From: a virus
DNA: 64,000 bases
IMG/VR virus record: IMGVR_UViG_3300033516_000084
Coordinates: 36,967-100,966 of that record
Reading direction: 5' to 3' (one strand)
Part shown: positions 19,583 through 64,000 of the stretch, in pieces
Layout of the letters: the number at the start of each line of letters is the position of its first letter
How positions within the stretch are numbered: the stretch's first letter is position 1
Made by a program: the position numbers and the translations under genes
The notes under the pieces: generated by a model
Database searches by the model: none
Told to the model about the DNA's origin: nothing
What the model saw: the letters and a program-made list of their open reading frames with translations, nothing else

Positions 19583-19662
19583 TTTCAGTCCTTTGAAATT
19601 GGTTGGTAAGCCTGTATTATATATCAGTTTATCAAGGTTTACAGGCTTTTGGAAAATATATT

Positions 19663-19896
19663 TTAGGCCCGTTCGCAGTGCAGGCCACCTGCCTTACCCA
19701 GGCTAAGAACGTAGTCCGGGTACTCATTGATTTGGTCAAGGTCCTTGGCGATATGAATCGCGGCTTCATATCCCTGACCGTAGCGGTGTAGTTCTGTAGC
19801 GGCCTTCAGGAATACCTCCTTGGCCTCACCGATACTACGGTATTTGTTGTAGTAGGGGTAGCCACACAGCGGGGCCATCAGGAAACAAGCAGCCAT
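19663..19896 (-). CDS. early cassette hypothetical protein
   Basis: Follows a class II promoter/leader. Confidence 0.65.
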   Translation of the reverse strand: MAACFLMAPLCGYPYYNKYRSIGEAKEVFLKAATELHRYGQGYEAAIHIAKDLDQINEYPDYVLSLGKAGGLHCERA

Positions 19897-19977
19897 TTTT
19901 CAGTCCTTTGAAGTTTGTGGTAAGCCTGTAGTATATCGCAGTTTGACAAGGTTTACAGGCTTTTGGAAAATATATTT

Positions 19978-21228
19978 TCACCCCAGCCTGAGGCCCAACA
20001 GGTCTTCTAGCTTGAATGCATGGTGTCTTCTCCAGCGTTTAGCAAGACCGAAGAATGCGGTCATGTCAGTCGAGGCCAAGGTATCCACGTCCGGGTGCCC
20101 TAGCTCTTTTGCCCGTTCGCCCAACCACTTGGTTTGATCACGCATGTCATCGTCAAACGAGGTGGTGGTTACAGCCTTTTCCTTGGAACAGTACCTCTTT
20201 TTTGCGTCACGGTAGGGATTGGCTTTTAGTACGGATGAGGGACTACTAGGGTAACTCTTGAACATCGACATAATCTCTTCTTCCTCCGTGGTAACAGTAA
20301 TTCCATGGGCCTTAACCACGTCCCAAGCCTCCTTACTGAGAGAATTTTTGTCCGGTACAACAATGGACTGAATATCCTTGACAGATACGCCTCCATGAAC
20401 TTGAGCCTCCATGTATGCAGCGGCCCGTGCCTCATTTACTGTTTTTGCCTCTGAAACCCTTGAGGCCACCGAATCTACATTAAATGCCCCTCTATAAACG
20501 TCCAGCCCAATCACACTGGCTAACTTTGGGTCAGTTACCTTTGAGGGCGGGTAAGCCACTTTGGTGTCGTTGTTGGAGGTCATCCCATTTACTGAGTCCC
20601 CACCGGTAAAGGTGGTGCGATCACGAACCTCGGGTTTGAGAGTCACCCTACTTCTTCCGTAGACCACAGCCCCAGAATTAGCCATCTCCATGGGTTTAGC
20701 CCCAGCACTGTGCAACACCCCATAGATTATGCTATGGGGTTTTTTAGCATCACCAAACATCAGCTTTTCGGCATTGGCCATTGCCTCTAAGATCGAGGGA
20801 TTCTTAGACTGTAGCTCCTGGGAGGTCTTAAAACCTCCACTTGTAAGTATGGTATTCAAGTCATCCTTGCCCGTATGTATCACCACCTTGGCATCCTTCA
20901 TCAGGGCAGAAAGGCTTTCCTGGGCTTTGTGTAGACCCTCTACATCTACCTCAGCTAGCTTATGCATCATGTTGGCCCGCTCCGCTAGCAAGTCCTTGTT
21001 TATGGGTGGCTCATTTTTTGTAGCCCCCTTTTTAGGGGCACCAAACATACTCACAAAGCCAGCCTTATCGCCTGTAGAGAACCTGCCTAGCCCGTCGTGA
21101 TACGGGTTGGCCTTTACTATGGTTTCCTGGGCGGGCAACAGGCTCTTATTTTGGAACAAAAAGCTATACATGGTAGTGCGGTGGATTAGGGTGTTAGAGT
21201 CTCCATTGTCCCACGCTAAGGCCCTCAT
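19978..21228 (-). CDS. DUF3626-like (putative ADP-ribosyltransferase-fold) effector with NPYH tags
   Basis: IYGVL, YGRSRVTLK, RTTFTGGDS and YMEAQVHGGV..KDI motifs; IVK-ANPYHDGLGRF and VLK-ANPYRD tags; likely start MYSFLF near 21171. Confidence 0.6.
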   Translation of the reverse strand: MRALAWDNGDSNTLIHRTTMYSFLFQNKSLLPAQETIVKANPYHDGLGRFSTGDKAGFVSMFGAPKKGATKNEPPINKDLLAERANMMHKLAEVDVEGLHKAQESLSALMKDAKVVIHTGKDDLNTILTSGGFKTSQELQSKNPSILEAMANAEKLMFGDAKKPHSIIYGVLHSAGAKPMEMANSGAVVYGRSRVTLKPEVRDRTTFTGGDSVNGMTSNNDTKVAYPPSKVTDPKLASVIGLDVYRGAFNVDSVASRVSEAKTVNEARAAAYMEAQVHGGVSVKDIQSIVVPDKNSLSKEAWDVVKAHGITVTTEEEEIMSMFKSYPSSPSSVLKANPYRDAKKRYCSKEKAVTTTSFDDDMRDQTKWLGERAKELGHPDVDTLASTDMTAFFGLAKRWRRHHAFKLEDLLGLRLG

Positions 21229-21348
21229 AGCACGCGCTAATCCGGTGCTGGCATATCGGTAAAGGAGTCTATGCAGTGGGCGTGTATAGCCATGTTTTCC
21301 CAGATGGTCAACTGCCCCTGGGGCGTGGGGCGTGGGGCCGGGGTTTGG

Positions 21349-21558: not shown

Positions 21559-21774
21559 TTTCAATCCTTTGAAGGTGGAGGGTTTTGGTTGGTAAGCCAT
21601 TAGTATAACACAGTTTATCAAGGATTACATATATTTTAAAAATATATTTTCAGCCCAGGGTAGTGCATGGTGGGGCTATTTTCTCTGGCACTGGCAGGGC
21701 TTGCACTTGGGGGGGGGGTAAGGCTTTATTACATCAGGTTTTTACCGTTTGTCAAGATATTTACAAAATATATT

Positions 21775-21993: not shown

Positions 21994-22132
21994 TTTTCAC
22001 TCCGTTGAAAGGTTAAGGGGTTATTGAAGCCAATCCCTTGTGTTTTTTAGCCAGATCACCCACCACACCGGGACGGTAGGGTTTTTTTCGGCTTAGGTAA
22101 TCAATTCGTCGCTCACTCCTTTGAGTTGGTTA

Positions 22133-22775: not shown

Positions 22776-23205
22776 TTTCAATCCTTTGAAGCTGTTTGGT
22801 TGGTAAGCCTTGAGTATAGCACGGTTTATCAAGGTTTTTACACGATTTGAAAATATATTTTTCTACTTCTGGCTGGCGTAGTACTTCTGGCGGGCACGAA
22901 TCTCTTGGTTAGCTAGGTCGATAATGTCTTCATGGCCGTTGTCTGTGATGTACTTGGTAGCTCTAACTACCCCCTTAGGGCGGCTAGTGATGCTATGGGC
23001 AAATCCTTGTACCTGGCAATGACACTGACGGTATTTCTGCTGGCCAAGGCAACGATGTGTGCGGCCTCTTGTTCTTCAGTGCGTGGGGGTAGGAGGCAAA
23101 AACTCCTGGGGATGCATGGTGTGGTCTGTGTGGTTCATAATAATCATTATAGGGGTCGGTAGTTTACTACCAACCACAGCCCCGTTTCCGGGGCGTTGGC
23201 GTGGC

Positions 23206-23559: not shown

Positions 23560-23772
23560 CTTCAGTCCTTTGAAAGTTTGGGGGGGGTAAGCGGCTTTTT
23601 AGGGCCTGGGGTAATTATATATCAGTTTGCCAAGGTTTTAACTGATTTTGAAAATATATTTTTCAGGCTTTGAAAATATATTTTCGCCCACCTACGGCTG
23701 TCTGTACCCCAAGTGCATGGTGGGGGCTAAAAACCATGCCCCGGATTTCCGGGCTTTGGTCTGGGGGCAGGA

Positions 23773-24087: not shown

Positions 24088-24155
24088 ATTCAATCCTTCT
24101 AGGGTTGTGCAATTGATTGCAGCCCATTTTGTGGGCCGCGAGTAGGGTAGTGAGG

Positions 24156-25202: not shown

Positions 25203-25633
25203 TTTCAGTCCTTTGAAAGTTTGGGGGGGGTAAGCGGCTTTTTAGGGCCTGGGGTAATTATATATCAGTTTGCCAAGGTTTTAACTGATTTTGAAAATAT
25301 ATTTTCACTTCTTCTGGCTGGCGGCATCCTCTCCTCAAGGGTGTTGCATGGTGCAATTAATTGCACTCGTCCACACCCAAAATGCGTGGGTATTCTCCAC
25401 CAAAACGTGGCTGTGTTCTGGTTTTCAGTGCTTAAAAATTAGGCAGAAAACACGGGGTTTTGACTTCCAGTGCTACGGCTTGCATAGCACTAATTGAAGC
25501 GCACCCAAATCGCGTTGGGGGCAGCAGGTGGCAGTCGGTGGGAGATATTAGGACAGGTGCTTATTTTTTTGTGTGCCGGGCTTGTACACCCCTTGCCAGT
25601 GCAATTAATTGCAGTTGGCAAGTGCAATTAATT

Positions 25634-25912: not shown

Positions 25913-26202
25913 GAGCTTCTTTCGTGTGTGGGTGGTGGGGTAGGGTGGGCAGGTGGACTGGGTGTCGCTGTGGGCCTTTGTAGGCCCTTGGACTACTTGC
26001 GTACAAACCCGGATATGCAAAATTTTCCGCGTGGCAGGTTGTAGTCGAACTCTCACGTCACGTCAATTTCCTCATCGTTGATTGTCACGGTTTCAACGCT
26101 TGTATATGTACTCATTTTGCATTCCTTTGCTTTTTGGTTGGTAAGCCTTGATTATAGCGTAGTTTTTCAAGGTTTACCATCTGTTTGAAAATATATTTTC
26201 TA

Positions 26203-26409: not shown

Positions 26410-26571
26410 TTTCAATCCTTTGAAGGTGGAGGGTTTTGGTTGGTAAGCCATTAGTATAACACAGTTTATCAAGGTTTTAACTGCGGTTGAAAATATATTT
26501 TTCAACCCCCTGAGGCAGTGCATGGTGCGGTCTGGGGCGTAAAAAAAGCCCGGACAATCGGGCTGGTGGGG

Positions 26572-27543: not shown

Positions 27544-27929
27544 GTCAGTCCTTTGAAAAATGGGGGGAAGGGGTGGGATTTTTAGGGCCTGGGGTAATTA
27601 TATATCAGTTTGACAAGGTTTTAACACGGGTTGAAAATATATTTTCGCCCTCCTGTGGTCGCACTGGGTGGCTGCATGGTGCAATTGGTTGCACACCCCG
27701 TGGTGGTGTGCAGAAAATCTAGTGTGGGTGTACACACAGGTGTCATACTTGACTGTTGGAACCTTAACCAAGGCGCTAGAATCACTCATTTCAAATCCCC
27801 AAAGTTAGTCACCAGCCATAATAATTCCTGGTAGACCAGTGGGGACTGGTGCGGCGTACCGCAACTACTAGGGCTGATGATCGACATATACAAGTTGGGC
27901 TACCAGACCCAGCTTGTATTACAGTTGGA

Positions 27930-29458: not shown

Positions 29459-30055
29459 CTACTCTTGGACTCTGACCCGCAGAGGGGTCTCCTCCTCATA
29501 AGGCTCTGAAATGGTGATCGAGGTAGTCACTTCATTAGCTTCTTTCACTTCCTCTTCAATCGTACCCCGCAGTGCTGCCGTGGTGTCCACACGTTTCTCT
29601 AACCGAAACCTGAATCCGATTACCAGTCTGTCGCCAATGGTGTAGGCCCATACCCTCACCCCCCCAACGAGGTTACCCATCACGGCTATCTTATGAAAGT
29701 AGTTGCCTGTTACCGGGTTCTTCAATGTGCCTCGGCCCCCAAGGGTGTAGGAGTTAGTCAGGTACTTGTAAATGTCCCCAAGCATTATCTCCTGTAGGTC
29801 GATAGAACTGATCAAGAACTCCATCTTAGAGAACTTGGACATGATGGTCTCAGAAAAAGTCGCTGCTAGACCGAACCGGTGAATCCCCTTTACAAGGGCA
29901 TAGGCCGGGTGTCCGTAGTAGTTAAATATCCTATCATCACAGATAGATGCATGAATATCCGAGCCCCCATCAAAAGACACACTAGGAAACAGGTGATGGC
30001 ATAGGGCGGCCACAGAGGGCTCTTTATCTGATTTATAGCCCATTGGTGGCCTCAC
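29459..30055 (-). CDS. hypothetical protein
   Basis: Overlaps the end of the AAA ATPase gene. Confidence 0.6.
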   Translation of the reverse strand: MRPPMGYKSDKEPSVAALCHHLFPSVSFDGGSDIHASICDDRIFNYYGHPAYALVKGIHRFGLAATFSETIMSKFSKMEFLISSIDLQEIMLGDIYKYLTNSYTLGGRGTLKNPVTGNYFHKIAVMGNLVGGVRVWAYTIGDRLVIGFRFRLEKRVDTTAALRGTIEEEVKEANEVTTSITISEPYEEETPLRVRVQE

Positions 30056-32078
30056 GTACCATGACCTTTACCATGGACTTTACAGACTTTACCACTACCA
30101 CCTGGGGTACTGGGTCTCCGGGAATAAACAGGGTTTTCATATCATCTTTCAACTTCTGCTGTAGGTGTGCCGGTATGTCACGTAGTTCTCCCCACAATTT
30201 CAGGGCCAGGGTCTTGTAAATGTGGGCCGCGAACTCCACGGCTTCCATCCATGACTCAAGGCCCTTGAACACCATCACCTCGTCAATACGTCCCTCACGG
30301 TACAACTCCTTGGGGATTGATTCCCGACAGTTGGTGGTCATGACCGTGAATACCCGTGACTCATGTTCCTGTAGCCACCACAAAAGTGTACCTAGTAAGC
30401 TGGTGGTAACCCCTGAATCGCTCTGTGAACTAAAGGCTTTCTCTGCCTCGTCAAGCAACAGGATGCACGGGCCTAGGCTGTCTACCTGGGATAGGGCGGC
30501 ATTAAGACCAGCCTCACTACCACCCACATACTTGTCTTTTAACGACCCAATATCTAGGTGGTACAGGGGCACACCCCACTGGTTGGCGATAAATTTGGAG
30601 GCAGCGGATTTTCCTGTATTGTGAACAATAAATCCGTCAGCCACAAAGTTATGTGCAGGGGCTTCCATTTGAATGTCATAGGTTAGCAACTCTCCAACTG
30701 GTTGGAAAGCAACAATAGTATCTAGTACAAAGTACTCGGTTTTGAAGTTCTTTTGATTCTCCAGCCCGTGATAGGTAGCGTGCTCTTTTTTGGTAAAAAC
30801 CATCAAATTACTAAGAGAATCATTCAACTTATTCTCGTCGCGGTGGTGTACCTCCTGATCACTGGTAAGGAATATAAGACCCTCCATCTGATTAGTATCC
30901 AGTCGGGTGCGGTACTCGTCCACGCTGAGACCATTCATATGGGCTTCCACTACTAACCGGGAAAAATGGAGCCTCTTATAGAGGTACCCGTCCACCACCT
31001 TAGTACCTGCAACAGGATGGTGTTTAACGCAGACCTCTTTCCTATGGATAAGCCGCTTAGCCCTATCTGTTGTCCCTGTGGGACACATACTACCCTTCAT
31101 ACGCACCAAATCTCCGGGCTTCAAAGTTTGGGCTTCTACAAAAATACCTTTATCGTTACACACAGGATGGTCTGCTGTAAGCACAATACTATTACCAGCT
31201 TGCGTAGCTAGCTTAAAGCAGGGTTTTACCCCCGAGGTAACGATAGCTACTACCCTATTGTAAAATAGAACACCGTCTTCCCCCATAGAATGCAGGTAAG
31301 TTGGCTCATTTTTTAGCCTAACAGGGTTCTTACCACAAGGTAGGCCATTGAATCTTAAATACAGGTCTTTCATTAGTATAGGGCGACCCCCTGGCCTTGC
31401 ACCCCTTTTGTATATAAGCTCCGTGTCCCCTGATAAACACCCAGGATTGCCATCGAACAACAACCCCCTGGGTGTGAGACTTGGTAGCACCGGTTTTGTG
31501 AAAAACAGACCGTTATCTTCTAGCCAGTTCTCAAGGTAGGACGGGCATTGGTAAAAGTCATAGGCGGTATCAATCTGTACCAGTCCTTTCAACTTGCTGA
31601 TATAGCTTTTCCGGGTGTCGTTGATTTCTCGGGCGGTAACTTTACCAGACCGTTTTAGGGTAATTCGCGTGGCCTCGTACATCTCTTTCAAGGTCATCCC
31701 GCTAAAGGCTGGCAGGGCTTCCTCTGTCAATGCCGGGTCATCCATTAACGTACTCAGGTACTCCAGCATCATCTGGCGTGGTGGTAGCATGGCCCCACCT
31801 GAAAAATGCAGTACCGAGGGTTTGGTGTTTACGAACACCAAGCACTTACCCTTGGATTTGAACTCCATGTACATCTGAGGTGTCGATAGCTCTGCTGATG
31901 TGTAGTAAATGTCGTTCTTCAACATACCCACTGTACCATCTGCGCCCGCAGACTGCGGCATCGGGTAGGTTTGCTCTCCGGCAATGTACGACAGTACCTC
32001 CTGTACATGTAATAAGTCCGTGGTGGTCACATGAATGAACGGCAACTTTGACTTCAGTGCTTGTTCTAGAATATCCAT
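30033..32078 (-). CDS. AAA+ ATPase (Ycf46/Cdc48-like) with an intein in Walker A
   Basis: GLLFDGNPG|TGKS; Walker B ILLLDEAEK; MTTN; PKELYREGRID. Confidence 0.9.
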   Translation of the reverse strand: MDILEQALKSKLPFIHVTTTDLLHVQEVLSYIAGEQTYPMPQSAGADGTVGMLKNDIYYTSAELSTPQMYMEFKSKGKCLVFVNTKPSVLHFSGGAMLPPRQMMLEYLSTLMDDPALTEEALPAFSGMTLKEMYEATRITLKRSGKVTAREINDTRKSYISKLKGLVQIDTAYDFYQCPSYLENWLEDNGLFFTKPVLPSLTPRGLLFDGNPGCLSGDTELIYKRGARPGGRPILMKDLYLRFNGLPCGKNPVRLKNEPTYLHSMGEDGVLFYNRVVAIVTSGVKPCFKLATQAGNSIVLTADHPVCNDKGIFVEAQTLKPGDLVRMKGSMCPTGTTDRAKRLIHRKEVCVKHHPVAGTKVVDGYLYKRLHFSRLVVEAHMNGLSVDEYRTRLDTNQMEGLIFLTSDQEVHHRDENKLNDSLSNLMVFTKKEHATYHGLENQKNFKTEYFVLDTIVAFQPVGELLTYDIQMEAPAHNFVADGFIVHNTGKSAASKFIANQWGVPLYHLDIGSLKDKYVGGSEAGLNAALSQVDSLGPCILLLDEAEKAFSSQSDSGVTTSLLGTLLWWLQEHESRVFTVMTTNCRESIPKELYREGRIDEVMVFKGLESWMEAVEFAAHIYKTLALKLWGELRDIPAHLQQKLKDDMKTLFIPGDPVPQVVVVKSVKSMVKVMVREATNGL
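30618..31439 (-). mobile_element. intein carrying an HNH domain
   Basis: Begins CLSGDTEL; LTADH; VHHRDENKLNDSLSNL; ends IVHN followed by Thr; 274 aa. Confidence 0.9.
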
Positions 32079-32154
32079 TTTCACTCCGTTGAGGGTTGGT
32101 AAGAGCTAATTATATCAGGTTTTGTCAAGGAATTGGCAGCACCTGCTAATATAG

Positions 32155-40619: not shown

Positions 40620-40685
40620 TTTCTCACTCCTTTGAGTTTGTTTGTGTAAGGCTTTATTATAACAGGGTTTAATCGTTTGTCAAGA

Positions 40686-42435: not shown

Positions 42436-42469
42436 TGTTGCACTCCTTTGCTGTAGAGCTAATTATATG

Positions 42470-42946: not shown

Positions 42947-43031
42947 TTGATACTCCTTTATATGCAGTGGGCTACTGCGGTTACGATTTACTTGCTACTG
43001 AGTCTATTATATACCAAAATAAAGTAGTTTG

Positions 43032-43250: not shown

Positions 43251-43254
43251 GACA

Positions 43255-43515
43255 CTAAGTCAACCTAATGATAGGTATGTCCCGGCTGGCCTCAAAACAC
43301 AGGCGTGGGCCGGGGTTAGCGGATGCGCCTCGTCCAATACTCACGTACACCTTGGGCAGAATCTCTACTCGGTTTTGTGACGAAATAATGAAGGGGATAG
43401 CCTTCTCACCTACGGCCATTCTCATAATTTCTCCAGGGCCTACCGAGGTCATCGTTACCTTGGTGTCGCCAATTTGCAGTACCTGTCCGGTACGAACCCC
43501 AATACTCAAAGCCAA
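43255..43515 (-). CDS. CsrA/RsmA-like RNA-binding protein
   Basis: LSIGVRTGQVLQIGDTKVT and RLCFEASRDIPIIR resemble CsrA LILTRRVGETLMIGDEVTV and RIGVNAPKEVSVHR, with an internal extension. Confidence 0.55.
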   Translation of the reverse strand: MALSIGVRTGQVLQIGDTKVTMTSVGPGEIMRMAVGEKAIPFIISSQNRVEILPKVYVSIGRGASANPGPRLCFEASRDIPIIRLT

Positions 43516-43526
43516 GATATGTCTCC

Positions 43527-44015: not shown

Positions 44016-44023
44016 ATATTCTC

Positions 44024-44443
44024 CTATTTTAGTCCCATTAAATCCAACGCGCATTCCGCAAGCTCCCAGGTGCTGCCATCAATAACCCCCCGTTTGTAAT
44101 CCACTACTCTAACCAGACCCCGGCTTCTTAATATCATCAGGTAGCTACTAACGTCCGATACCGTGAAGCTATTACCGTGTAGGGTTAGGGTGTCAGTAAC
44201 CTCCCTACTATTAGCCGGTTCTATTTGCCATAAACATGATAATGTCGAGAACAGGTAAGTTCCAACCCTTGGTAATCGCACATCCTTCACTTTCTCATTA
44301 TGGATAACCTCAAGGGATAACAGGGTCGTAAATACCACCTTCCGGTAACCGCACCAGCATACTAGTGTCAGGTCGGTATCGGATTTTTGGTATCTCGCGT
44401 TTGCGCTTCCACACTTTGGACAGTCTGCTGTATAGACACTCAT
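44024..44443 (-). CDS. zinc-ribbon plus winged-HTH protein (putative transcription factor)
   Basis: CPKC...CWC; C-terminal SDVSSYLMILRSRGLV...TWEL. Confidence 0.6.
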   Translation of the reverse strand: MSVYTADCPKCGSANARYQKSDTDLTLVCWCGYRKVVFTTLLSLEVIHNEKVKDVRLPRVGTYLFSTLSCLWQIEPANSREVTDTLTLHGNSFTVSDVSSYLMILRSRGLVRVVDYKRGVIDGSTWELAECALDLMGLK

Positions 44444-44494
44444 AGAACTCCGGGCGGTAAGGCCCGTATTCTACCGTATCCTTATACCATGTAA

Positions 44495-46417: not shown

Positions 46418-46476
46418 TTTGCACTCCGTTGCGTTTTGGTTGGTAAACCTTTATTATATACGAAAATTTGGGTTTG

Positions 46477-47475: not shown

Positions 47476-47727
47476 TTCAATCCTTTGAAAGCTATCAGAC
47501 TTTGGTGAGCCAGCTAACAAACAATTTTTTGGTCGCAATCTCCGAGAATGCGAGACGCGCCTTGATGGCCTCATGGCAGGCGGCAAGCCACTCGCTTTTG
47601 ATGTTACGGCCAGAAGCGGTTGTTACGTTGCCCATTTTCAATCCTTTGAAGCTGTTTGGTTGGTAAGCCTTGAGTATAGCACGGTTTATCAAGGCTTTTC
47701 ATATATTTCACATATATTTTTATCGGC

Positions 47728-48084: not shown

Positions 48085-48349
48085 ATACTTTCCTGGCGTG
48101 GTGTTGATAAGCCTGTAGTATAACCGAGTTTGACAAGGTTTACAGGCTTTTTTGAAAATATATTTGTGCAATTGATTGCACTCCGTTGCAACCCCACTTA
48201 GATGCCTACTACCATGTCGTCTGGGTTGATCAAAACCCTGGCCCCGGTAGACAGTACGGTGGCTTGGTCTTCGTCATCCTTCACCATAATCTCGTCTTGG
48301 TCGGGTAGGTAGAATTTGTCTCCTACCTCCAGCAGGTAGAACTTTAGGT

Positions 48350-50852: not shown

Positions 50853-51112
50853 AGGTTCATAATCTCGGTGATAGCCTTCGCTACTTCAACACACCGGCTA
50901 TCGGGTAGTCCGGTACGCTGTTCAACATCTAGGGCAGTATACCCTTGGCCATCAAAGAAGTCTTGTACAGCAATAAGCAGGTTACGCTGATATTCTATAA
51001 GGTCTGCGGCTTTATCCGCAATTTCAGCGTAATCAAGGTTCAGGTTTCTGGTGCGACTTATGTCCGCACCAGTCCTGAGGGTTTTTACTAACTCCCTGGT
51101 ATCGAAGCTCAT
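50849..51112 (-). CDS. hypothetical protein
   Basis: Coupled to the HDAC gene. Confidence 0.55.
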   Translation of the reverse strand: MSFDTRELVKTLRTGADISRTRNLNLDYAEIADKAADLIEYQRNLLIAVQDFFDGQGYTALDVEQRTGLPDSRCVEVAKAITEIMNL

Positions 51113-51969
51113 ACCATCTCCGGCTGTTTGTGGTCACAGTACTTCAGCCACAGGTCATAGGTGTTGGCGTGAAGCTCCAGTACCTTGCTAAAGGGCTTGG
51201 TGTACCCACCCGCCAAATCCCAGACCACAGGGATACCCCTATCTCTTGCAAAGGCAAATACAAGAGTGTCTCGTTGAATCAACTGCCATTCTGTCAGGCA
51301 CCCGCCAAGAGGGTCCTTAATAAAGGGGTCCATGCCTGCTTGGTACAACAGTACCTTGCACTCCCCGAATACACTACGCAAAATCTCTGGCAAGTCTTTC
51401 AGGAACTCGTCACCCATATTACGGTTAGCGTAGCTAGTGCCTCCATACGTGTAGTGTGGGGTGTTCTCAATACCGAGGGCAGAAAAAATATCTACCGTCC
51501 CATTGCCATAGTGCATATCTAGGTCCAGCACACCGGGCTTCATATCAAATTCTTGGGCCACCACAGCCGCTAATGCGAGTCCGTTGAAGGTGCAAAATCC
51601 TCCACCAAAGTCATGACCGGCGTGGTGAAACCCGGACACAGGTACACAGCTACTGTAACCCTCGATAGAGCGCATCACCCCCTCGACCATGGCACCGCAG
51701 GTATAGGTACAGGCTTCTGCTACTTTTGGGTCGTGTGAGCCAAACCCATTTGGTTGCACCCCTGACAGTACCTCTTTCAAGTACTTAGGGTCGTGTACCC
51801 GCTTCAAAAGCTCTATGGCACTGGTACTCTTGAATACCGGGATACCATCTTCTTCGATCTTGGGGGCGATATGCTCAAGGAAAGCCTTGGGCTTTTTCCA
51901 ACTCGGGCTATAGCTGTCTACGTGCAAGGGTACGCACAGTGGGTTCCAAATGATTGCTGGTTTGAACAT
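51109..51969 (-). CDS. histone deacetylase family (Zn-dependent) enzyme
   Basis: GFHHAG, GGFCTFN, LDLDMHYGNGT, YQAGMDP..DPLG and LAGGY. Confidence 0.9.
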   Translation of the reverse strand: MFKPAIIWNPLCVPLHVDSYSPSWKKPKAFLEHIAPKIEEDGIPVFKSTSAIELLKRVHDPKYLKEVLSGVQPNGFGSHDPKVAEACTYTCGAMVEGVMRSIEGYSSCVPVSGFHHAGHDFGGGFCTFNGLALAAVVAQEFDMKPGVLDLDMHYGNGTVDIFSALGIENTPHYTYGGTSYANRNMGDEFLKDLPEILRSVFGECKVLLYQAGMDPFIKDPLGGCLTEWQLIQRDTLVFAFARDRGIPVVWDLAGGYTKPFSKVLELHANTYDLWLKYCDHKQPEMV

Positions 51970-52050
51970 TAGTCACTCCTTTGATTTGTGATTGTTGCGA
52001 TACCTGCATTCTAACAGGTATTTATAGGTTTGTCAAGTATTTTTTACCAC

Positions 52051-52272
52051 CTAGTGCAATTGATTGCGCGGCTTCACCGGTTGCGGGGTTACCATCAACT
52101 GCACAAGGTCCTCGGCAATACCGTTTTTACGCATTTGCTCTGCGGAGGCTGCGCGGTGCTTAGTATCCTCAACATCCTCGGCCAACAGCGACTGTAGCAA
52201 CGTGCTGTTTCTCCCACCCACGTTCATAGAGTCCTTCTCCTTAGGCCGCATCTTGTCTCGTCCTGTAGTCAT
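52051..52272 (-). CDS. small hypothetical protein
   Basis: Class I promoter and AAGGA RBS. Confidence 0.5.
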   Translation of the reverse strand: MTTGRDKMRPKEKDSMNVGGRNSTLLQSLLAEDVEDTKHRAASAEQMRKNGIAEDLVQLMVTPQPVKPRNQLH

Positions 52273-52320
52273 TTAATATCCTTTAGTAAGAATGCATTAT
52301 AACAGACCATAATCAGTTTG

Positions 52321-55161
52321 TCAAGGGGTTTTTGCCTTTTTTGTTGTCAGGTAATCCCTTAGTTGTTTGGCAGAATCCACGTCTGAAAAGTGGTGGGTGG
52401 CGTTCCAGTTGCCTCCTGACATAGCCGTTTTCACGAAAGTCATAGGTATGTTGTCCGGTATCCTTGGGTCCTTGGAGTCCTTGTACGTGTGCCCAAAGTG
52501 GTCATCTAAGTTAGGCGTGGGCAGGTTGGCAAGTTGGGTGGCCATGTGCTTATCATCAGAGGACAGTATGGCGTGTAGGGCATCCCGCTCTTTCATTGCC
52601 TCCTTGGACAACGGCACTCGGTCTTCTCTAGGGATACCCTCATTTGCCTTCTTTATTATCCGGGACATACCATCCTCTACGCTCTTGCGTACCGGGTATA
52701 GGTCGTCCGGGGTGAACCCAAACTTACTCCAGGCATAGGCACCAGCCTCTAGGTTAGCGTGTACGGTAATGGCTTTTAGCCCCATCTTCTTGTACAAGGG
52801 CAGGGAGTTTGTAAACAACGCTTTTGCGGTTCCTTTGTTCCCCTCACCATCTTCCATCTGTAGAAAGGTGTGGTCAATTGATTGCATGTCCTTGGACAGG
52901 CAACGCTCTACCCACCCAACTTTAGAGCCATGCACCTCACCTGTACCCGCGAATGAAACCCGTCCCTTTAGATGCTCGTAGCCCACACCACCGGTATGCT
53001 CTTCAATGGAGGCTCCTACGATCTTCCCATCAGCGTATTCGTTCTCCCCCCAAATAGCTTTCACCATCTCCACTGGGTCTACCCGGCCCATTGTTTTTGC
53101 GTGAAAATCCTCGGCGGTGTACCCGGATGATATACCTTTGTCACTTAGCTCCTTTAACTTGGCACGAACATGGTCTACTGTGTGCGTCGGTATATCCTTA
53201 CCATCATAGGTCTTGTTTGGGTCAGAACCTATGACCTCCCCCGTAAGCCCTGTGCCGTTGGCTTTATGCTTGCTGGCATTCTGGTTGCCTAAGGGCGCAC
53301 CTTTGAATACGGATGCAGATACATCTAAGTGTGCGTCTTTTCTAACCCAACCTGGCGGTTCAAAAAGCTCCCCAGTCTCACCATCCACATACCGCCCATC
53401 AGCAGTTTTGGATGAGCCCTCTGGTGGCCTCCAACGCCCTCTGGGGGCCTTAGGCTCGTCAAAGAACTCACTAGACTCTTTATCGTACTTAGTCTTAGCC
53501 TGCTCAACCACATCCAATACCACGCGATCTTCGGACACGCTACGCACTTTCAGCTTACCCGGTGGTAGTAAGACTTCGTGCTCTGACTCATCCCTACCCT
53601 CATCATAATCTGGGTCATTACGGTGATGGGAATACAAATCCATGCTTATGGCCTTAGAGCCCTTTGGTAAATGAATCTCTAACAGGGGTGCCTTTCTACC
53701 ATCAGAGTCCCCACCAATCTCACGATAGCCCTCTCCAACTTTTTTATCCACAGTCGTAGACCACGGCCCTTTTAGCTCAAAGGGGTCTCCAGGCTTTGCA
53801 TTAGCCCACTGAGTATCGTCAGCCCCCACACCCCTAAAAAGAACCTGATTAGCCTTGGTAGGTAAGACGTTATGGAACGCACCTAGTAACCTGTCTGAAA
53901 TCCTAGCATTTTCAGAATTACCAGCATTTCCCATTACCTGAGAATATGAACGGAGGGCCTGTGCCTGGCCGGGTGGTAGGGGCACTGCCTTACCAGTAAC
54001 TGGGTGGATTGTTAATCCACTTACAGCACTAGGGATGTGGTATTTGTCCTTATTCTTTCTAGCATTCTGGTTACCTAGTGGGGCACCTTTGAACAAGTTT
54101 ACCCAACCACCATGTTTCAATACCTTGGATGGCTTGTTATGGTTTAGTAGTTCTACTTCCAGAACAGTTTGTTTCTGTTCACCAGCCAGTGGGTGTATAA
54201 ACGTGCGTTCTTTGGCACCAACAACTTTGTACTCTCTATCTCTTGGGAGTAAAAACTCTTGCTCTCCCGGATGATCTGATCGGTTATCACCCCCACCTAA
54301 CCACGCCCCCGTAGTACCTTTGGGGGCGCGTATTTCCATCACTACTCTACCTGATGACGAATAGCTTTTAGCCTCTCTTAGGGAGGGGGAAGTTGACCCA
54401 AAGGCTGGGTCTGAGAAGGTCTTACCTACTAGTGAAGACAGCTCTTCAATACTAGAACTTTTACCATATCTTTTTGTGTCACCCAAAAGCCTGCTTACAT
54501 CCGAGGCGCGATATAGAGTCCCACCCTCTGGTAACGACATTTTTTCTAATGCAGAGTCGAGGGTCTTTACCTGGGCGTGTATAGCTGGGGACTCTCCAAC
54601 TCTACCCTCTCCTATAGCCTCGTTCATAGCCTCATGCTGAGAGCCCGTGTAATCACTTACAGATTTTTTCTCTGAATCAGATAAACTACCCCACATATCT
54701 TGGGTAGCGTCTGACATACGTGCGCTATGGTCTAAAATAGCTTTAGGAGACTGCTCTAGTATAGGGATAGAGGTAGCACTAGAACCCCCTCCAGAAGCCC
54801 TTTTATTCCCAATGGAGCCGGGCCTGCGGGCAAAGGCGTGACCACCCACTGCGTTTTTATTTCCTAGAGGGGCACCTTTGAACACCGATGCCATACCGGC
54901 AATTGATTTCACCCGTGGTTTTGGGTGTATCAGCCCAGTCTTGTTGTCTAGGTAGAGGATGCCCCCATCACCCTTTATCGGCGTGCGGTGGTCTTCGTCC
55001 CCGGACAATATGCTGTCGGGTATCCCTTTTGGGAACGCTTCGCAGGTCAAGCCATTATTCCAGTGTCCACAGGTGTGGCAGGGTAGAGCAGGTAGCTCTA
55101 TTCCGCTAGTGTCATCCATCCTACTGCGTAGGTCGTTGTATGTCGGTTTAGTAGTCATCAT
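52321..55161 (-). CDS. effector polyprotein: Cys domain, two VIP2-like ADP-ribosyltransferases and a GNAT-like domain
   Basis: CHTC..CEAFPKGIP..DH; ART1 LYR...GSTS...EQEFLLPR; ART2 LFRG...WSTT...EHEVLLP; GNAT-like HTFLQM...GTAK...GAYAWSKFGF; each module preceded by FK-GAPLGN.NA. Confidence 0.8.
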   Translation of the reverse strand: MMTTKPTYNDLRSRMDDTSGIELPALPCHTCGHWNNGLTCEAFPKGIPDSILSGDEDHRTPIKGDGGILYLDNKTGLIHPKPRVKSIAGMASVFKGAPLGNKNAVGGHAFARRPGSIGNKRASGGGSSATSIPILEQSPKAILDHSARMSDATQDMWGSLSDSEKKSVSDYTGSQHEAMNEAIGEGRVGESPAIHAQVKTLDSALEKMSLPEGGTLYRASDVSRLLGDTKRYGKSSSIEELSSLVGKTFSDPAFGSTSPSLREAKSYSSSGRVVMEIRAPKGTTGAWLGGGDNRSDHPGEQEFLLPRDREYKVVGAKERTFIHPLAGEQKQTVLEVELLNHNKPSKVLKHGGWVNLFKGAPLGNQNARKNKDKYHIPSAVSGLTIHPVTGKAVPLPPGQAQALRSYSQVMGNAGNSENARISDRLLGAFHNVLPTKANQVLFRGVGADDTQWANAKPGDPFELKGPWSTTVDKKVGEGYREIGGDSDGRKAPLLEIHLPKGSKAISMDLYSHHRNDPDYDEGRDESEHEVLLPPGKLKVRSVSEDRVVLDVVEQAKTKYDKESSEFFDEPKAPRGRWRPPEGSSKTADGRYVDGETGELFEPPGWVRKDAHLDVSASVFKGAPLGNQNASKHKANGTGLTGEVIGSDPNKTYDGKDIPTHTVDHVRAKLKELSDKGISSGYTAEDFHAKTMGRVDPVEMVKAIWGENEYADGKIVGASIEEHTGGVGYEHLKGRVSFAGTGEVHGSKVGWVERCLSKDMQSIDHTFLQMEDGEGNKGTAKALFTNSLPLYKKMGLKAITVHANLEAGAYAWSKFGFTPDDLYPVRKSVEDGMSRIIKKANEGIPREDRVPLSKEAMKERDALHAILSSDDKHMATQLANLPTPNLDDHFGHTYKDSKDPRIPDNIPMTFVKTAMSGGNWNATHHFSDVDSAKQLRDYLTTKKAKTP

Positions 55162-56624
55162 TTTGCCCTCTTCTTTTTAATAGCGGTTGTCTTAATGGTA
55201 AGCCTACCGCTTTCGTCTACACTAGCAGAGTCAACCCTGAAGTGTGTACCACGATCTATTATAACCTCCCGCTCATCGGGCTTTCTGGCGTATTTATCGT
55301 CATCTACTAGAGGGGGGATAGGTTTATAGTACCCCTTCCATTCTTTATCGGTCTCCTCGCGTGGAGGTTCTAAGGTTCCTACATAAGCTACCTTATGCCC
55401 CTTAGGAACAGTTATCTCCATCTGTAACTCTGCTATAGACCCGTTGGCATCGTCCCACATCTGTGCCGTGAGTTTGTTAGTAGTGGAGCTTGTAAATCCG
55501 GGGTCCTTCAATACTGAGCCTACCAGTTTTCCATTTTCATGCAAGGATTTCATTTCATGATGTAGCTCCCACCCATTAACACCTCGAAATACCTTTAAGG
55601 GGGAGGATACTGGAGACATGGCCTTATCTAATGACTCTACTATAGACTTTGCCCTGTCGTCCCATTGGGGTTTACCAAGGGTCGTCCCTGGTTTCCTCAA
55701 CGAGGTATTCACCCCATAATACTCGTTGTCGGTATAGGCTTTAACATTTGCCCTATCTACCTCGTTTAAGCTGTCCAAGTGGGCGCGGCTTTTGGATACT
55801 ATATTGAAAACTGGCCTACCTTCCTCAGTGGGGCCCCACTCACTTACCTCACCCCAGGCGCTGGTATGTACCGCCTTATCTTTGGAGGTGAACTGTCCAC
55901 CCTTTCCATGATAGGGGTTGGCCTTAAATACGGAGGTGAACCCTTCGTAGTACTGGGCTATGGATTCCAATATATACAGCCCTTCTGACTTTTTTACCTC
56001 AGGGTCATCCGGGGTGTCGGATGCTAACAACCATGACAAGTCCAATATGAGTTTCTTTTTAGGTGGCTGGTCAGACAGTAGACCGGCTACGGCCAAGTCG
56101 GGGGCTTGTATATCGTCTTTGGCTAGTGCAATTGATTGCAGGTTCTCAGACTTTTCCACCACCTTACCAACATAGTCCTCATTTACCGGCTCATAGATTT
56201 CAGGCCCGAACATCAGTGGGCCGGTGTAGGGCTGTATGGTCGTCAGATCGACCTCAGAGCCCTTGTAGGTGATGGTGACATGGGATTGGTACTCCGGGTA
56301 GTCCCAGCTCGCTCCAGCGGCCTCCCATTGGTCATGGCGGTCTTGCAGGGCCTTACTACTGAACTTCAAGACAACCGCTGTATCACCCAAGGGGGATACC
56401 TCACGTACTGCTGGAATATCGGACACGTTGTCAACAACTAGATTGTTGGTATCCGGGGCTAGGGTGTCCCACGCCACGGGTGTCCTACTATACACCACGG
56501 TCACATGTAATTCGGAAATTTCTAGAACTCTTGGAAAACCCTGTGCCTTTGCCCAGTCAGTAAACTCCTGAGAGTTTACAAGTTTTCTCTGAACGTACAG
56601 GGTGGATATGTTTGGCGTGATCAT
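55158..56624 (-). CDS. Acb1-like 2H phosphoesterase fused to a VIP2-like ADP-ribosyltransferase
   Basis: Two HxT motifs (LHVTVVYSR, SHVTITY) with FGPE; VFK-ANPYHGKGGQF; VFRG...GFTSST...EREVIIDRG. Confidence 0.8.
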   Translation of the reverse strand: MITPNISTLYVQRKLVNSQEFTDWAKAQGFPRVLEISELHVTVVYSRTPVAWDTLAPDTNNLVVDNVSDIPAVREVSPLGDTAVVLKFSSKALQDRHDQWEAAGASWDYPEYQSHVTITYKGSEVDLTTIQPYTGPLMFGPEIYEPVNEDYVGKVVEKSENLQSIALAKDDIQAPDLAVAGLLSDQPPKKKLILDLSWLLASDTPDDPEVKKSEGLYILESIAQYYEGFTSVFKANPYHGKGGQFTSKDKAVHTSAWGEVSEWGPTEEGRPVFNIVSKSRAHLDSLNEVDRANVKAYTDNEYYGVNTSLRKPGTTLGKPQWDDRAKSIVESLDKAMSPVSSPLKVFRGVNGWELHHEMKSLHENGKLVGSVLKDPGFTSSTTNKLTAQMWDDANGSIAELQMEITVPKGHKVAYVGTLEPPREETDKEWKGYYKPIPPLVDDDKYARKPDEREVIIDRGTHFRVDSASVDESGRLTIKTTAIKKKRAK

Positions 56625-57993: not shown

Positions 57994-58044
57994 TTTCAGT
58001 CCTTTGAGGGTTGCGGGTTGGTAAGCCTTTATTATAGCGTAGTT

Positions 58045-59203: not shown

Positions 59204-59392
59204 TTAGCACTCCTTTGCTTACCCTGTGTGGGTAGTTGGTTGGTAAGACTTGATTATAGCATAGTTTATCAAGTCTTGCTAAGTATTTTTCCTACTTTGG
59301 CGGGTTTTTTGGAGCCTCTTTTTTAGGCTTCTTTTTTTCTTTGTTGGACTTGGGCGTTTTGTTTGCCATACGATTCTCCGGTGGTTGGTTAA

Positions 59393-61580: not shown

Positions 61581-61643
61581 AAAACCTCCTAAGTTAAGCA
61601 CTATTATAGCACAGATTGTTCAAAAATGTTCATTAGATACTCC

Positions 61644-63653
61644 TTAGTTAAAACGCACGTTATACGTCTTTTGCACTGATGTAGAGCTTTGCACCTGAAC
61701 GGTGATAACGTCCTTTCGGGTGCTGGAGAACCCCAAACCGCTCAACTGGTTTTCAACCATAGGGCATTTAGTCAAATTTGATAACTGCTCAAAAACTTTC
61801 CGGTGGGCATCCAACTTAGAGTTCAGGAACTCGTTATAAATCCCCCTTGCAGGTTCTGGATTACGACACCCCTCCAGTACAAAGAACCAGTGTTTGTTAC
61901 CAACGGCGTTGTCATCCCAGTAGTTCGGGCTGTACATCATCGTCTGCACCTTCACAAAGGTTTCGGTCTTGATACCCCACTCCACCTTTGACCGGCCTTC
62001 TTGCGTTAGCTCGGGGTGGGAAGTGCAGGACACCATTGCATTGTTTTTTACAGTGATTGTCAGCACATCTACTGTTCCTGTCACTGGTTTAGCGTACTTG
62101 TACTGGGTAGTAGCCCCGTCAAATTCAACCTCTAGGACAAACCCAATGTCAGCGGTTTCGCGGCGGTTGTATTGGTTGACGTACACCCGGTACACGCCAT
62201 CACTTAGGCTTACCCAACTAAGGTTCTCAACCGCCTCGCGGGTAGTCCCACCCCCGGCATTCATGTCCACATCCAAGACCGATCTTTTATTACCAAAGTA
62301 AATACGCTCACCATTAGGCGTATAGCACCCCAAATCCAGATCATCATAGTTGAACCACGCGAGAGACACCCGGAGTTTGGCGTTGGTCACATTGCCACCG
62401 GCATTCTTCACCTTCTCCTTGATAGAGTCAGTGATATTGCCGTTGTAACTCCAGCCAAAATCATTGTCCCATTTGAACAACTTCCCTGAATCAGGGTTTA
62501 CTGGCGCGGTAAGGCTTACCAAGTTAGGCAGGTACTTGCCCTGAACCAGCAAGCTCATGCCCTGGGCTTTGGGTACGACCTTGGACATGAAATCAACAAT
62601 ACCAATATCCTCGGACTTGCTGCTGGTGCGCCCGGTGGTGGTATCAACATGGGCCATCAACAGACCCTCTACCCCGCCCTTCATGTGGGACCTGACTGAG
62701 TTGTCCACCCACAGGACGTTGTTCACACTCACATCCCCGATAGTGGCTAACCGGCGTTCAAGGGCTGGCTCAAGTCCAAGCTCTGTGATGGTAGCCATAG
62801 CAGCCTTTACCATGCTCTGAGTGATCAAGGCAGTTGTACGCTTGTAATTTGTTGGGGCTACTTTGACCTCGAATGAGCGTACTGCGTGTTCTACACCAAT
62901 GCCTTCACTAAGGTCTTGCACCAGAGTACCGATCACGGTGTTACGGAAGTGCGCAGCTTGTCCAACAGCGCTTGTCCACACGTAGGTGTCACGCTCAGTG
63001 CCACCTTGTGGCAAGGTCAGGTACTGATTCTGCGCCTTCTGAAAAGTCACCACCGCTGCCCGGTGCTCTGCACCCCGGTAGATGGCATTGGAGTCAATCA
63101 ACTCCAGCACCTGTGCCACTGACGCTGGAGACAGCTCCTCCAGGCCACGCTTAAACACTTGGGCGGCTGTACGGAAATCGCCTCGCGCCTTGTCTACTTG
63201 ATTGGTCAGATGCCTACTAGCCACCTTACCATGAAAGTGGTTCCAGTTCATGATCGTACCACCTGCCAGTAACTGCTTGGTCTGCTCAGCCCCGTAGGAG
63301 GCCTCAGACGACCTGAATAGGTTGGTGATAGGCATTGATAGCACCAGTGCATCTAAGGCCGCTGCAACCCCATTGAATGGGTACTCTGCGCCCTTTACAC
63401 CCCACACCGATTGGAGCTTGCCGTTGACCACGGCCACCACGGTGCCGATGTTCCGCACGAAGTTCTTGCAGCAACTGCAATCATGCTCGGTACGGGTCTT
63501 GTAAATTGGATTTGTCCCCTCTGGGAACGACTGGAGGTATTTTTCCCACAGCAAGTCACCATCAACGGTAACGTAAAGTTCTTGCTTGGACATTTCCACG
63601 AACTTGGAATGTACAAGGCTTGCAAACGGCTTAAATTCTGACATAGGTTTCAT
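61644..63653 (-). CDS. conserved large phage protein with a YfaP/DUF2135-like domain
   Basis: EHDCSCCKNF; LRVSLAWFNYDDLDL...LDVDMNAG...AVEN; SPNYWD...GNKH.FF. Confidence 0.7.
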   Translation of the reverse strand: MKPMSEFKPFASLVHSKFVEMSKQELYVTVDGDLLWEKYLQSFPEGTNPIYKTRTEHDCSCCKNFVRNIGTVVAVVNGKLQSVWGVKGAEYPFNGVAAALDALVLSMPITNLFRSSEASYGAEQTKQLLAGGTIMNWNHFHGKVASRHLTNQVDKARGDFRTAAQVFKRGLEELSPASVAQVLELIDSNAIYRGAEHRAAVVTFQKAQNQYLTLPQGGTERDTYVWTSAVGQAAHFRNTVIGTLVQDLSEGIGVEHAVRSFEVKVAPTNYKRTTALITQSMVKAAMATITELGLEPALERRLATIGDVSVNNVLWVDNSVRSHMKGGVEGLLMAHVDTTTGRTSSKSEDIGIVDFMSKVVPKAQGMSLLVQGKYLPNLVSLTAPVNPDSGKLFKWDNDFGWSYNGNITDSIKEKVKNAGGNVTNAKLRVSLAWFNYDDLDLGCYTPNGERIYFGNKRSVLDVDMNAGGGTTREAVENLSWVSLSDGVYRVYVNQYNRRETADIGFVLEVEFDGATTQYKYAKPVTGTVDVLTITVKNNAMVSCTSHPELTQEGRSKVEWGIKTETFVKVQTMMYSPNYWDDNAVGNKHWFFVLEGCRNPEPARGIYNEFLNSKLDAHRKVFEQLSNLTKCPMVENQLSGLGFSSTRKDVITVQVQSSTSVQKTYNVRFN

Positions 63654-63695
63654 CCTAAAAAGTTGGTAACAACGCTAACGCTAGCCCCAAGTTGG

Positions 63696-63932
63696 CTACT
63701 TGGCACTCTCCTTATGAAATTGATTGCACAAGGACACGGCCTCTGCGACAGCCTTATCCACATTTATTTTTAGTTGGGCATAGAATGCCGGGTGTACCAA
63801 GCACTCGTACCCGGTCTTCAGGGTTTTTCTCTGGCCCACGGTCAACCCCAGCTTGAAGGTGCTGAAAATCCGCAGGGCCTCTTTAGTACACCCGGTGTTC
63901 AACAGGTGTAAGGCTTGTTCTGTTTTAGTCAT
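63696..63932 (-). CDS. hypothetical protein
   Basis: Class II promoter/leader at 63933-64000. Confidence 0.65.
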   Translation of the reverse strand: MTKTEQALHLLNTGCTKEALRIFSTFKLGLTVGQRKTLKTGYECLVHPAFYAQLKINVDKAVAEAVSLCNQFHKESAK

Positions 63933-64000
63933 TTTCAATCCTTTGAAGGTGAGGGTTTTGGTTGGTAAGACTTGATTATAGCACAGTTTGCCAAGGCTTA

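Follow-up and report, generated by a model that had tools for sequence, protein, structure and literature searches.

A covarying Shine-Dalgarno hairpin with CsrA-site geometry at promoter-proximal genes of a large siphovirus lineage, and a possible phage-encoded reader

The stretch of DNA considered here (the window) is the final 64 kb of the 100,966-bp IMG/VR viral contig IMGVR_UViG_3300033516_000084, in which the minus strand is the coding strand for almost all genes. At 27 sites on this strand, the Shine-Dalgarno (SD) sequence lies in the ANGGAN hexaloop of a short hairpin, which marks the first gene of each transcription unit on a short 5' leader (about 35 nt) rather than early genes per se. 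Comparison with related genomes indicates that this hairpin is conserved in a phage lineage and is under selection for pairing, as opposed to being merely a copied cassette. The window also codes for an 86-aa protein (43255-43515) with a remote likeness to CsrA, raising the possibility, which we hold as plausible though short of probable, that the hairpins are operators of a phage-encoded translational repressor.

In a scan of the whole 101-kb contig, the pattern CA-ANGGAN-TG was found in 29 copies on the minus strand versus 3 on the plus strand, with a third base pair (i.e., a stem of at least 3 bp) in 28 of the former and none of the latter. A start codon (ATG, GTG, or TTG) lies 5 to 8 nt downstream of 27 copies, all of these hairpins falling between window positions 19583 and 63947 (Table 1); two doubtful RBS (ribosome-binding site) copies, at 48186 and 22121, show TTG starts, a 10-nt spacing, and very short open reading frames (ORFs). 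The initial annotation had listed such hairpins at the SDs of about 25 genes, and all 14 coordinates that it quoted were verified on the minus strand. Its further claim that the outer stem bases vary while staying paired is borne out as well: over the 27 sites, the third pair is T:A in 22 cases and G:C in 5, without a mismatch, and T:A, C:G, and A:T are all found at the fourth. The stems comprise TTCA/TGAA and TTTCA/TGAAA (15 together), TCA/TGA (4), GCA/TGC (3), and CTCA/TGAG (2), with AGCA/TGCT and GGTTGCA/TGCAATC as further types. A scan with a covariance model built from the sites, as had been suggested at the outset, gave 29 matches at E values of up to 0.21, all on the minus strand (19581-63950), the best plus-strand match having an E value of 3.9. 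Stems of at least 3 bp surround 6% of all ANGGAN words (5% expected) and 31% of those before coding-strand starts. An open scan for any stem-loop of at least 4 bp with an SD-like loop ahead of any start codon was noisy and dominated by spurious starts, with only the recurring hexaloops standing out; among SD-containing loops, only ANGGAN hexaloops recur, whereas other loop sizes do not. No Rfam family was matched in the window, the genome paper on the related Rhodobacter phage RcZahn makes no mention of hairpins, stem-loops, or promoters, and the SD-in-hexaloop hairpin was found neither in Rfam nor in the literature that could be searched.

The placement of the hairpin was assessed on a list of minus-strand gene calls made blind to the hairpins, with genes below window position 19300 counted as late or structural. 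Only 1 of the 22 called late or structural starts scores as a hairpin, in agreement with the earlier remark that none was seen at structural-gene RBSs. Among early and middle genes, the hairpin precedes 21 of the 42 with an upstream gap of at least 40 nt and 2 of the 39 that are operon internal (Fisher P = 5e-6); with the comparison restricted to ANGGAN SDs, the figures become 21/26 and 2/13 (Fisher P = 1.4e-4). The earlier assignment of the mark to early and middle genes does not hold for the class as a whole, in that it is the first gene after a promoter that is marked and not early genes generally. The genes led by the hairpin include those for a PPDK-like kinase, an intein-containing AAA ATPase, and a histone deacetylase (HDAC)-like enzyme, along with many small ORFs, and replication and metabolism genes are both represented.

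With 8 kb of the window as the query, no DNA-level match to cultured phages was obtained (megablast), and a search of genome contigs for related loci returned a single metagenome-assembled genome contig. By DNA polymerase, the closest relatives are large siphoviruses, namely, the Stenotrophomonas phages DLP_5 and Summit, Rhizobium phage RHph_TM16 (TM16), RcZahn, and a group of Vibrio phages. As many of its cassettes are obvious duplicates, the window on its own is weak evidence for selected pairing. Relatives, however, retain the hexaloop on unrelated stems, which argues that the pairing itself is selected: thirteen viral contigs found via the 86-aa protein show ANGGAG hexaloops before start codons on stems such as CTCA/TGAG, TCCA/TGGA, CCCA/TGGG, GCTC/GAGC, and GGTC/GACC (e.g., CTCA-ATGGAG-TGAG, TCCA-ATGGAG-TGGA, CCCA-AAGGAG-TGGG, and GAGC-AAGGAG-GCTC). 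In an ungapped alignment of 74 sites, the inner three pairs were used for site selection and are hence paired by construction; the fourth pair, which was not so used, is paired in 53 of 70 distinct rows (22 UA, 19 CG, 6 GC, 5 AU, and 1 GU). Shifting the partners by 1-3 columns leaves 30-40% of cells paired, and pairing at the fifth position is no better than chance. About a dozen NNNC-AAGGAG-GNNN hairpins are present in RcZahn (16.8% versus a background of 3.8%). In TM16, with gene starts as given in GenBank, hairpins on six unrelated stems precede 6 of 27 genes following a gap of at least 40 nt and none of 45 operon-internal genes (P = 0.002). Eighteen unrelated viral contigs show no hairpin enrichment (8.3% versus 7.5%). 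Further, AUGGAG is commoner than AAGGAG in the relatives, despite its weaker pairing with the anti-SD.

The initial annotation had likened an ANGGAN hexaloop at the SD to a CsrA/Rsm site, and the likeness holds for the ligands obtained by SELEX, in which GGA sits in a hexaloop on a stem of up to 4 bp (PMC7652899). All 27 window sites have GGA at loop positions 3-5, overlying the SD, on stems of 3-5 bp (one of 7 bp). Each is closed by A-U and then C-G (CA...UG) and not by AC...GU (WC-ANGGAN-GW). The reversal of the closing pairs noted earlier is thus real for this phage, but the orthogonality read from it is weakened by relatives with C-G closing pairs (RcZahn, TM16, and contigs L023 and L024). 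For the bivalent CsrA dimer, binding is best when two sites 10-63 nt apart are available, whereas from the presumed transcription start to +30 only one GGA is present in 21 of the 27 leaders. The stems have little stability (about -1 to -2 kcal/mol in leaders for which the hairpin is predicted), with several absent from the minimum-free-energy (MFE) fold; leader folding energies do not differ from those of shuffled sequences, with no significant z-score, so that leader thermodynamics neither favor nor exclude the hairpin. Stems of this weakness fit the expectation for a protein-stabilized site.

Upstream of the loop, at a distance of 13-43 nt, a TATAAT/TATACT element ends at 20 of the 27 hairpins, and most of these 20 belong to a repeated cassette made up of an AT palindrome, a TTGAYA box 8 nt from the -10 element, and a CA-rich leader (GGCTTACCAACCAA). 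The TTGAYAAACTG box (19600-19660 and about 20 hairpins) thus lies only 8 nt upstream of TATAAT/TATACT, unlike the usual 17-nt spacing; one promoter (42460-42500) has the normal arrangement, TTGACA-17-TATAAT. A second, C-rich class of leader (TATAAT-taccccaggccctaaaaagccgcttaccccccccaaac) occurs at three hairpins (23576-23620, 25219-25263, and 27557-27600), with the -10 element ending 43 nt ahead of the loop. Two pairs of cassettes are identical across promoter, leader, and hairpin (21560-21620 and 26411-26470; 22777-22835 and 47637-47695), with the first ORF codons of the 21560 and 26411 cassettes being identical as well, suggesting that whole cassette-gene units were recently duplicated or recombined. 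The leader and hairpin core (CTTACCAACC...CAANGGANTG) has one match at each of 18 loci in viral contigs; these are chance-like, and no hairpin set is present at any of them.

Judging by its SD, homologs, and large family, the gene for the 86-aa protein is genuine. The homologs are 45-70% identical, and the phage family to which it belongs comprises 644 sequence clusters at 50% identity. Several lines of evidence connect this family to CsrA. The CsrA family PF02599 is matched by 70 of 120 members, with no other family recurring in more than two, and the alignments place the C-terminal RLAFEAPRxIxIxR motif on positions 23-46 of the CsrA hidden Markov model, which equate to beta4-beta5 and include R44. 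In hhalign, residues 3-44 align with CsrA 2-42 (33% identity, P = 7.5e-4), and residues 48-86 independently align with CsrA 10-47 (P = 1e-3). In the ESM Atlas, the nearest cluster bears the name "Carbon storage regulator family protein" (0.88, 207/256 features), and the protein also adjoins a viral cluster with PF02599 in 12% of its members. AlphaFold2 predictions (pLDDT of 87.5, and 91.2 with 120 sequences) yield a helix-free monomer of nine strands, the first five of which lie at positions that we take to be near those of the CsrA strands. The sub-significant hhalign and Pfam alignments match L3 and I5 with CsrA L2 and L4; they also match I80, I82, and R84, which are nearly invariant in the family, with V40, V42, and R44. 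Conservation is strongest in the N-terminal beta1 (MALSxGV) and in the C-terminal beta4'-beta5' (RLxFEAxxxIxIxR, whose Arg corresponds to CsrA R44); in the CsrA dimer, it is the beta1 and beta4-beta5 elements of opposite subunits that build one RNA-binding face. Taking these alignments together, we propose that the protein is probably a CsrA derivative built from about 1.8 fused repeats, beta1-beta5 and then beta2'-beta5'. Such a fused chain, with no beta1' and a degenerate beta5, would keep one RNA-binding site and not two.

A number of results weigh against this kinship. The 86-aa protein alone has no Pfam match at E values of up to 10, and PF02599 is not matched anywhere in the contig. The family matches to PF02599 are below threshold (about 12-20 bits in ten members scanned individually, against a cutoff of 27; the best E value of the 120 is 1.9e-6), and family profiles returned only chance matches among PDB sequences. 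Foldseek found nothing in the PDB at E values of up to 0.001, and in a wide structure search (VIA-align) the top rows were generic beta-sandwiches, among them domain I of class II fusion proteins (Z = 8.1), with no CsrA chain listed. RsmF/RsmN does appear in the structure list (Z of 3.9-4.0, root mean square deviation of 2.6 over 49 residues, 20% identity), but within the noise range and with generic beta-sandwiches ranked above it. In addition, the CsrA beta1 arginines R6/R7 are not conserved in the family (V7; R/S8). A homodimer prediction with two copies of the protein scored 0.00 and carries no weight either way. The initial description of the product as CsrA-like hence survives as that of a plausible remote derivative, seen through family matches, and not as a significant CsrA match of the sequence itself; the structure prediction asked for at that stage gave a fold with nine strands and no C-terminal helix.

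The gene is part of a conserved module (39837-46417, minus strand) that consists of the PPDK-like kinase (PPDK_N plus PEP-utilizers mobile domain, without the pyruvate-binding barrel), the CsrA-like protein, a 72-aa ORF, a DSP/PTP phosphatase, a 334-aa protein of unknown function, a 260-aa gene, and polA. The order is common to TM16, RcZahn, and, in part, DLP_5. The kinase gene (44495-46417) is the first gene of the transcription unit that includes the CsrA-like gene, and between the two the window has an insertion of an HNH endonuclease gene (43527-44054) and a 139-aa ORF.

With these observations in place, the proposed repressor system, the single mechanism that we favor, can be set out. The SD GGA at positions 3-5 of an ANGGAN hexaloop, on a weak stem of 3-5 bp in a leader of about 35 nt, would constitute an RNA operator; a protein clamping the hairpin would block 30S binding, such that translation of promoter-proximal early and middle genes might be shut down or tuned as infection proceeds. 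The likeliest binder would be the phage's own 86-aa protein, and a one-site protein would match the one-site leaders (21 of 27 with one GGA). The gene and the hairpins occur together in the window contig, in contigs L020-L025, in RcZahn, and in TM16, and both are lacking in KarBoss, the sole gene-negative relative tested. In a published listing of csrA, Rhizobium, Sinorhizobium, and Agrobacterium have 0 copies and Stenotrophomonas one, with Rhodobacter being absent from the table (PMC7366521 Supplementary Table 1); as the host genus of TM16 is thus listed without csrA, a host CsrA cannot be the reader there. On the related contig IMGVR_UViG_3300035661_000247 (L021:8638-8661), a TCA-ATGGAG-TGA hairpin stands before the start codon of the CsrA-like gene itself, which would allow autoregulation.

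Other comparisons count against tying the protein to the hairpins. The CsrA-like gene is present with no hairpin enrichment in DLP_5 and in several IMG/VR contigs (L077-L084) and with weak enrichment in PG28. Within 10 kb of nine further gene-bearing viral loci, no clear enrichment is seen (23/297 versus 60/1091); strict coupling of gene and hairpin is weakened by these nine. All positive cases belong to one clade, and their co-occurrence may reflect shared ancestry. Moreover, in the genomes checked, the CsrA-like gene always lies directly or a short way downstream of the PPDK-like kinase, and in TM16, RcZahn, and the window (three of the four) it is also upstream of PTP phosphatases; this constant synteny hints at a different partner or at a function within the module. 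No hairpin set accompanies the canonical csrA of Bcep22 (6.2% versus 5.9%). No pattern was apparent by eye between protein subtype and the type of hairpin closing pair.

The main alternative, which dispenses with a dedicated binder, is that of an intrinsic cis-element, with the CsrA-like gene being unrelated: the hairpin would show the SD single-stranded in its loop and make the RBS of a portable promoter-leader cassette independent of the coding sequence placed behind it, and it may also shield a very short 5' untranslated region from 5'-end-dependent decay. We regard this as possible, if on the doubtful side. It accords with the restriction of the hairpin to promoter-proximal genes, which must attract ribosomes anew to leaders of about 35 nt, with the visible duplication and shuffling of cassettes among small early genes, with the lack of strict coupling between hairpin set and CsrA-like gene across phages, and with the presence of hairpins in phages whose hosts have no CsrA. 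However, stems so weak that several are missing from the MFE fold, with z-scores short of significance, would offer little presentation or protection without a ligand, and only ANGGAN hexaloops recur, to the exclusion of other loop sizes. The preference for AUGGAG over AAGGAG in relatives, despite poorer anti-SD pairing, likewise speaks for a shape-specific reader rather than SD accessibility.

The reader could in principle be the CsrA/RsmA of the host, with the leaders being its targets, thereby gating their expression by cell physiology, or its sponges, with about 25 leaders titrating CsrA as CsrB does. Although the hexaloop, GGA position, and short stem match the CsrA SELEX and RsmE-hcnA sites, the copies are many and on probably abundant transcripts, and the host of this uncultured phage may well have CsrA, we consider this reading unlikely: TM16 retains the hairpins although the csrA count given for Rhizobium, Sinorhizobium, and Agrobacterium is 0 (PMC7366521), the DLP_5 host Stenotrophomonas has csrA and yet DLP_5 shows no hairpin enrichment, most leaders have a single GGA against the preference of the dimer for two sites, and the closing pair is A-U here as against C-G in SELEX. 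The titration of host CsrA proposed in the initial annotation is accordingly unlikely as a general role, with relatives bearing the same hairpins infecting Rhizobium, a genus listed without csrA. A DNA-level palindrome or another factor appears more improbable still, be it an operator about 20-35 bp past the start site for a dimeric repressor, an RNA site of another protein, or a hitchhiker in a recombining cassette. The constant position of an inverted repeat within a recurring promoter cassette could be so interpreted, and this phage does have other strand-specific DNA motifs. Against this, variation of the stem bases with complementarity kept (T:A versus G:C, C:G, and A:T in the window, and more in relatives) is a signature of RNA pairing and not of base-specific DNA recognition, the conserved center is asymmetric and equals the SD itself, and the element is strictly strand specific and start codon proximal.

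Returning to the repressor hypothesis, a broader version of it, which we advance as a possibility with considerable reservation, would have a lineage of large siphoviruses with alpha- and gammaproteobacterial hosts, some without CsrA, evolving a self-contained posttranscriptional switch, in which a duplicated and fused CsrA, now a family confined to phages, with at least 644 sequence clusters and unrecognized by Pfam, acts as a single-chain, one-site binder on single GGA-hexaloop operators over the SD of the first gene in almost every early or middle unit. A link between protein and hairpins, if it holds, would make this the first CsrA-type regulator encoded by a phage for which a cognate regulon is defined, as well as the first case of the CsrA fold in monovalent, single-chain form; translational control would also gain a compact, possibly host-independent pair of a protein and a 14-nt operator. 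Two findings do not depend on this link: promoter-proximal genes throughout a phage lineage are marked by a covarying hairpin with the SD in its hexaloop, and a large family of phage proteins finds a provisional place beside CsrA. As the cultured phages RcZahn and RHph_TM16 carry both features, with the host genus of the latter listed without csrA, the hypothesis is directly testable.

Some further features of the window deserve mention. The DNA polymerase (34110-39164, minus strand, 1684 aa) aligns with its relatives in three pieces that cover only 44% of the protein, a pattern suggestive of several inteins or insertions; the AAA ATPase gene (30033-32078, minus strand) has an intein splicing domain and an HNH endonuclease inside it. 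Of three genes within 51109-56624 (minus strand), only that of the histone deacetylase family (51109-51969) has a hairpin ahead of it; the others, both without an SD hairpin, code for a 946-aa protein with an ADP-ribosyltransferase domain (52321-55161, minus strand) and for a fusion of an Acb1 (anti-CBASS) domain with an ADP-ribosyltransferase (55158-56624, minus strand). The 14-mer TGCAATCAATTGCA occurs in 15 copies in the window (1159-60507; e.g., 1159-1172, 24108-24121, and 48167-48180), all in one orientation on the minus strand (chance expectation, 0); the whole contig has about 24 copies or variants, both intergenic and intragenic. It has the look of a site that acts at the DNA level, be it in nicking, modification, or packaging. 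ATCAAT/ATTGAT is the most frequent hexaloop-type inverted repeat in related contigs.

Table 1. Hairpins, a complete cassette, and the CsrA-like gene in the window
Feature	Position	Strand	Remarks
Full cassette example	19583..19660	-	AT palindrome AAAATATATTTTC, TTGATA box, 8 nt, TATAAT, CA-rich G-poor leader GGCTTACCAACCAA, hairpin, ATG
SD hairpin TTTCA-AAGGAC-TGAAA	19583..19598	-	Followed by ATG of gene 19277-19582; 22.7 bits; TATAAT 22 nt upstream
SD hairpin TTCA-AAGGAC-TGAA	19899..19912	-	
SD hairpin TTCA-AAGGAT-TGAA	21560..21573	-	Leader identical to that at 26411
SD hairpin TTTCA-ACGGAG-TGAAA	21995..22010	-	
Hairpin CTCA-AAGGAG-TGAG	22112..22125	-	Doubtful RBS: TTG start, very short ORF
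SD hairpin TTCA-AAGGAT-TGAA	22777..22790	-	
SD hairpin TTTCA-AAGGAC-TGAAG	23560..23575	-	C-rich leader variant
SD hairpin TTCA-AAGGAC-TGAA	24374..24387	-	
SD hairpin TTTCA-AAGGAC-TGAAA	25203..25218	-	C-rich leader variant
SD hairpin GCA-AAGGAA-TGC	26119..26130	-	
SD hairpin TTCA-AAGGAT-TGAA	26411..26424	-	
SD hairpin TTTCA-AAGGAC-TGAAA	26757..26772	-	
SD hairpin TTCA-AAGGAT-TGAA	27058..27071	-	
SD hairpin TCA-AAGGAC-TGA	27545..27556	-	C-rich leader variant
SD hairpin TTCA-AAGGAT-TGAA	29362..29375	-	
SD hairpin TCA-ACGGAG-TGA	32081..32092	-	Ahead of intein-containing AAA ATPase gene 30033-32078
SD hairpin TTCA-AAGGAT-TGAA	33475..33488	-	
SD hairpin CTCA-AAGGAG-TGAG	40623..40636	-	Ahead of gene 39837-40619 (GTG start); 26 bits, top covariance-model match
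SD hairpin GCA-AAGGAG-TGC	42440..42451	-	Ahead of 334-aa gene 41431-42435
86-aa CsrA-like protein gene	43255..43515	-	TTG start 7 nt after AAGGAG; own RBS without hairpin
SD hairpin GCA-ACGGAG-TGC	46421..46432	-	Ahead of PPDK-like kinase gene 44495-46417
SD hairpin TTTCA-AAGGAT-TGAAA	47475..47490	-	
SD hairpin TTCA-AAGGAT-TGAA	47637..47650	-	
Hairpin GGTTGCA-ACGGAG-TGCAATC	48174..48193	-	3' arm overlaps TGCAATCAATTGCA site; doubtful RBS
SD hairpin TCA-AAGGAG-TGA	51973..51984	-	Ahead of histone-deacetylase-like gene 51109-51969
SD hairpin TCA-AAGGAC-TGA	57996..58007	-	
SD hairpin AGCA-AAGGAG-TGCT	59206..59219	-	Present in MFE fold
SD hairpin TTCA-AAGGAT-TGAA	63934..63947	-	

Several parallels are suggested by known systems. 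The closest are the GGA-hairpin operators of CsrA and RsmA-RsmE (the Escherichia coli SELEX site RUACARGGAUGU and the RsmE-hcnA site of Pseudomonas fluorescens), which share with the phage sites the hexaloop, GGA at positions 3-5, short weak stems, and overlap with the SD; the proteins are remotely alike in beta1-beta3 and in the beta4-beta5 "APKEVxIxR" motif with its R44-equivalent Arg. They differ in that CsrA sites are closed by AC...GU, with at least two sites per target, whereas the phage sites are closed by CA...UG, with one per leader (C-G in RcZahn-type relatives). CsrA itself is a five-stranded, swapped homodimer with a C-terminal helix, while the phage protein, with 86 aa, nine predicted strands, and no helix, looks like a fused chain of 1.8 repeats and falls below the Pfam threshold. 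RsmN/RsmF of Pseudomonas aeruginosa (PMC3791407; PDB 4krw and 4k59) sets a precedent for the CsrA fold tolerating insertions and rearrangement while binding GGA hairpins, and such chains were the only ones of the CsrA family to surface in the structure search, with a match within the Z noise; unlike the predicted phage monomer, RsmN is still a homodimer, with an inserted helix.

Both phage-borne csrA genes and phage translational repressors are already known. A canonical csrA is present in 30 of 2,517 phage genomes, e.g., Bcep22-like Lessievirus and the rsmM phages of P. aeruginosa, and has been described as a moron (PMC7366521, PMC9144972). These are CsrA-family genes of unknown role, found also in phages of csrA-less hosts, and they encode ordinary proteins of about 64 aa that pass the Pfam threshold (31.2 bits for Bcep22). 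No cognate phage regulon for them is described in the accessible literature. At the level of the cassette, a parallel may be found in the PeSL (promoter-early stem-loop) elements of T4-type phages, mobile regulatory cassettes reportedly described by Arbiol et al. in 2010. These are said to be likewise a repeated module of promoter and stem-loop before many small early genes, apparently spread by recombination, with a stem-loop that is terminator-like and upstream of the promoter, in contrast to the SD-bearing hexaloop seen here. Among phage translational repressors, an example is RegA of phage T4 (reviewed in PMC3014915). The analogy would lie in a small phage-encoded protein proposed to repress many early mRNAs at the RBS. 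RegA is unrelated in sequence and recognizes loosely defined, unstructured AU-rich sites. By comparison with RegA, the operator of the phage system proposed here would be a defined, covarying hairpin limited to promoter-proximal genes.

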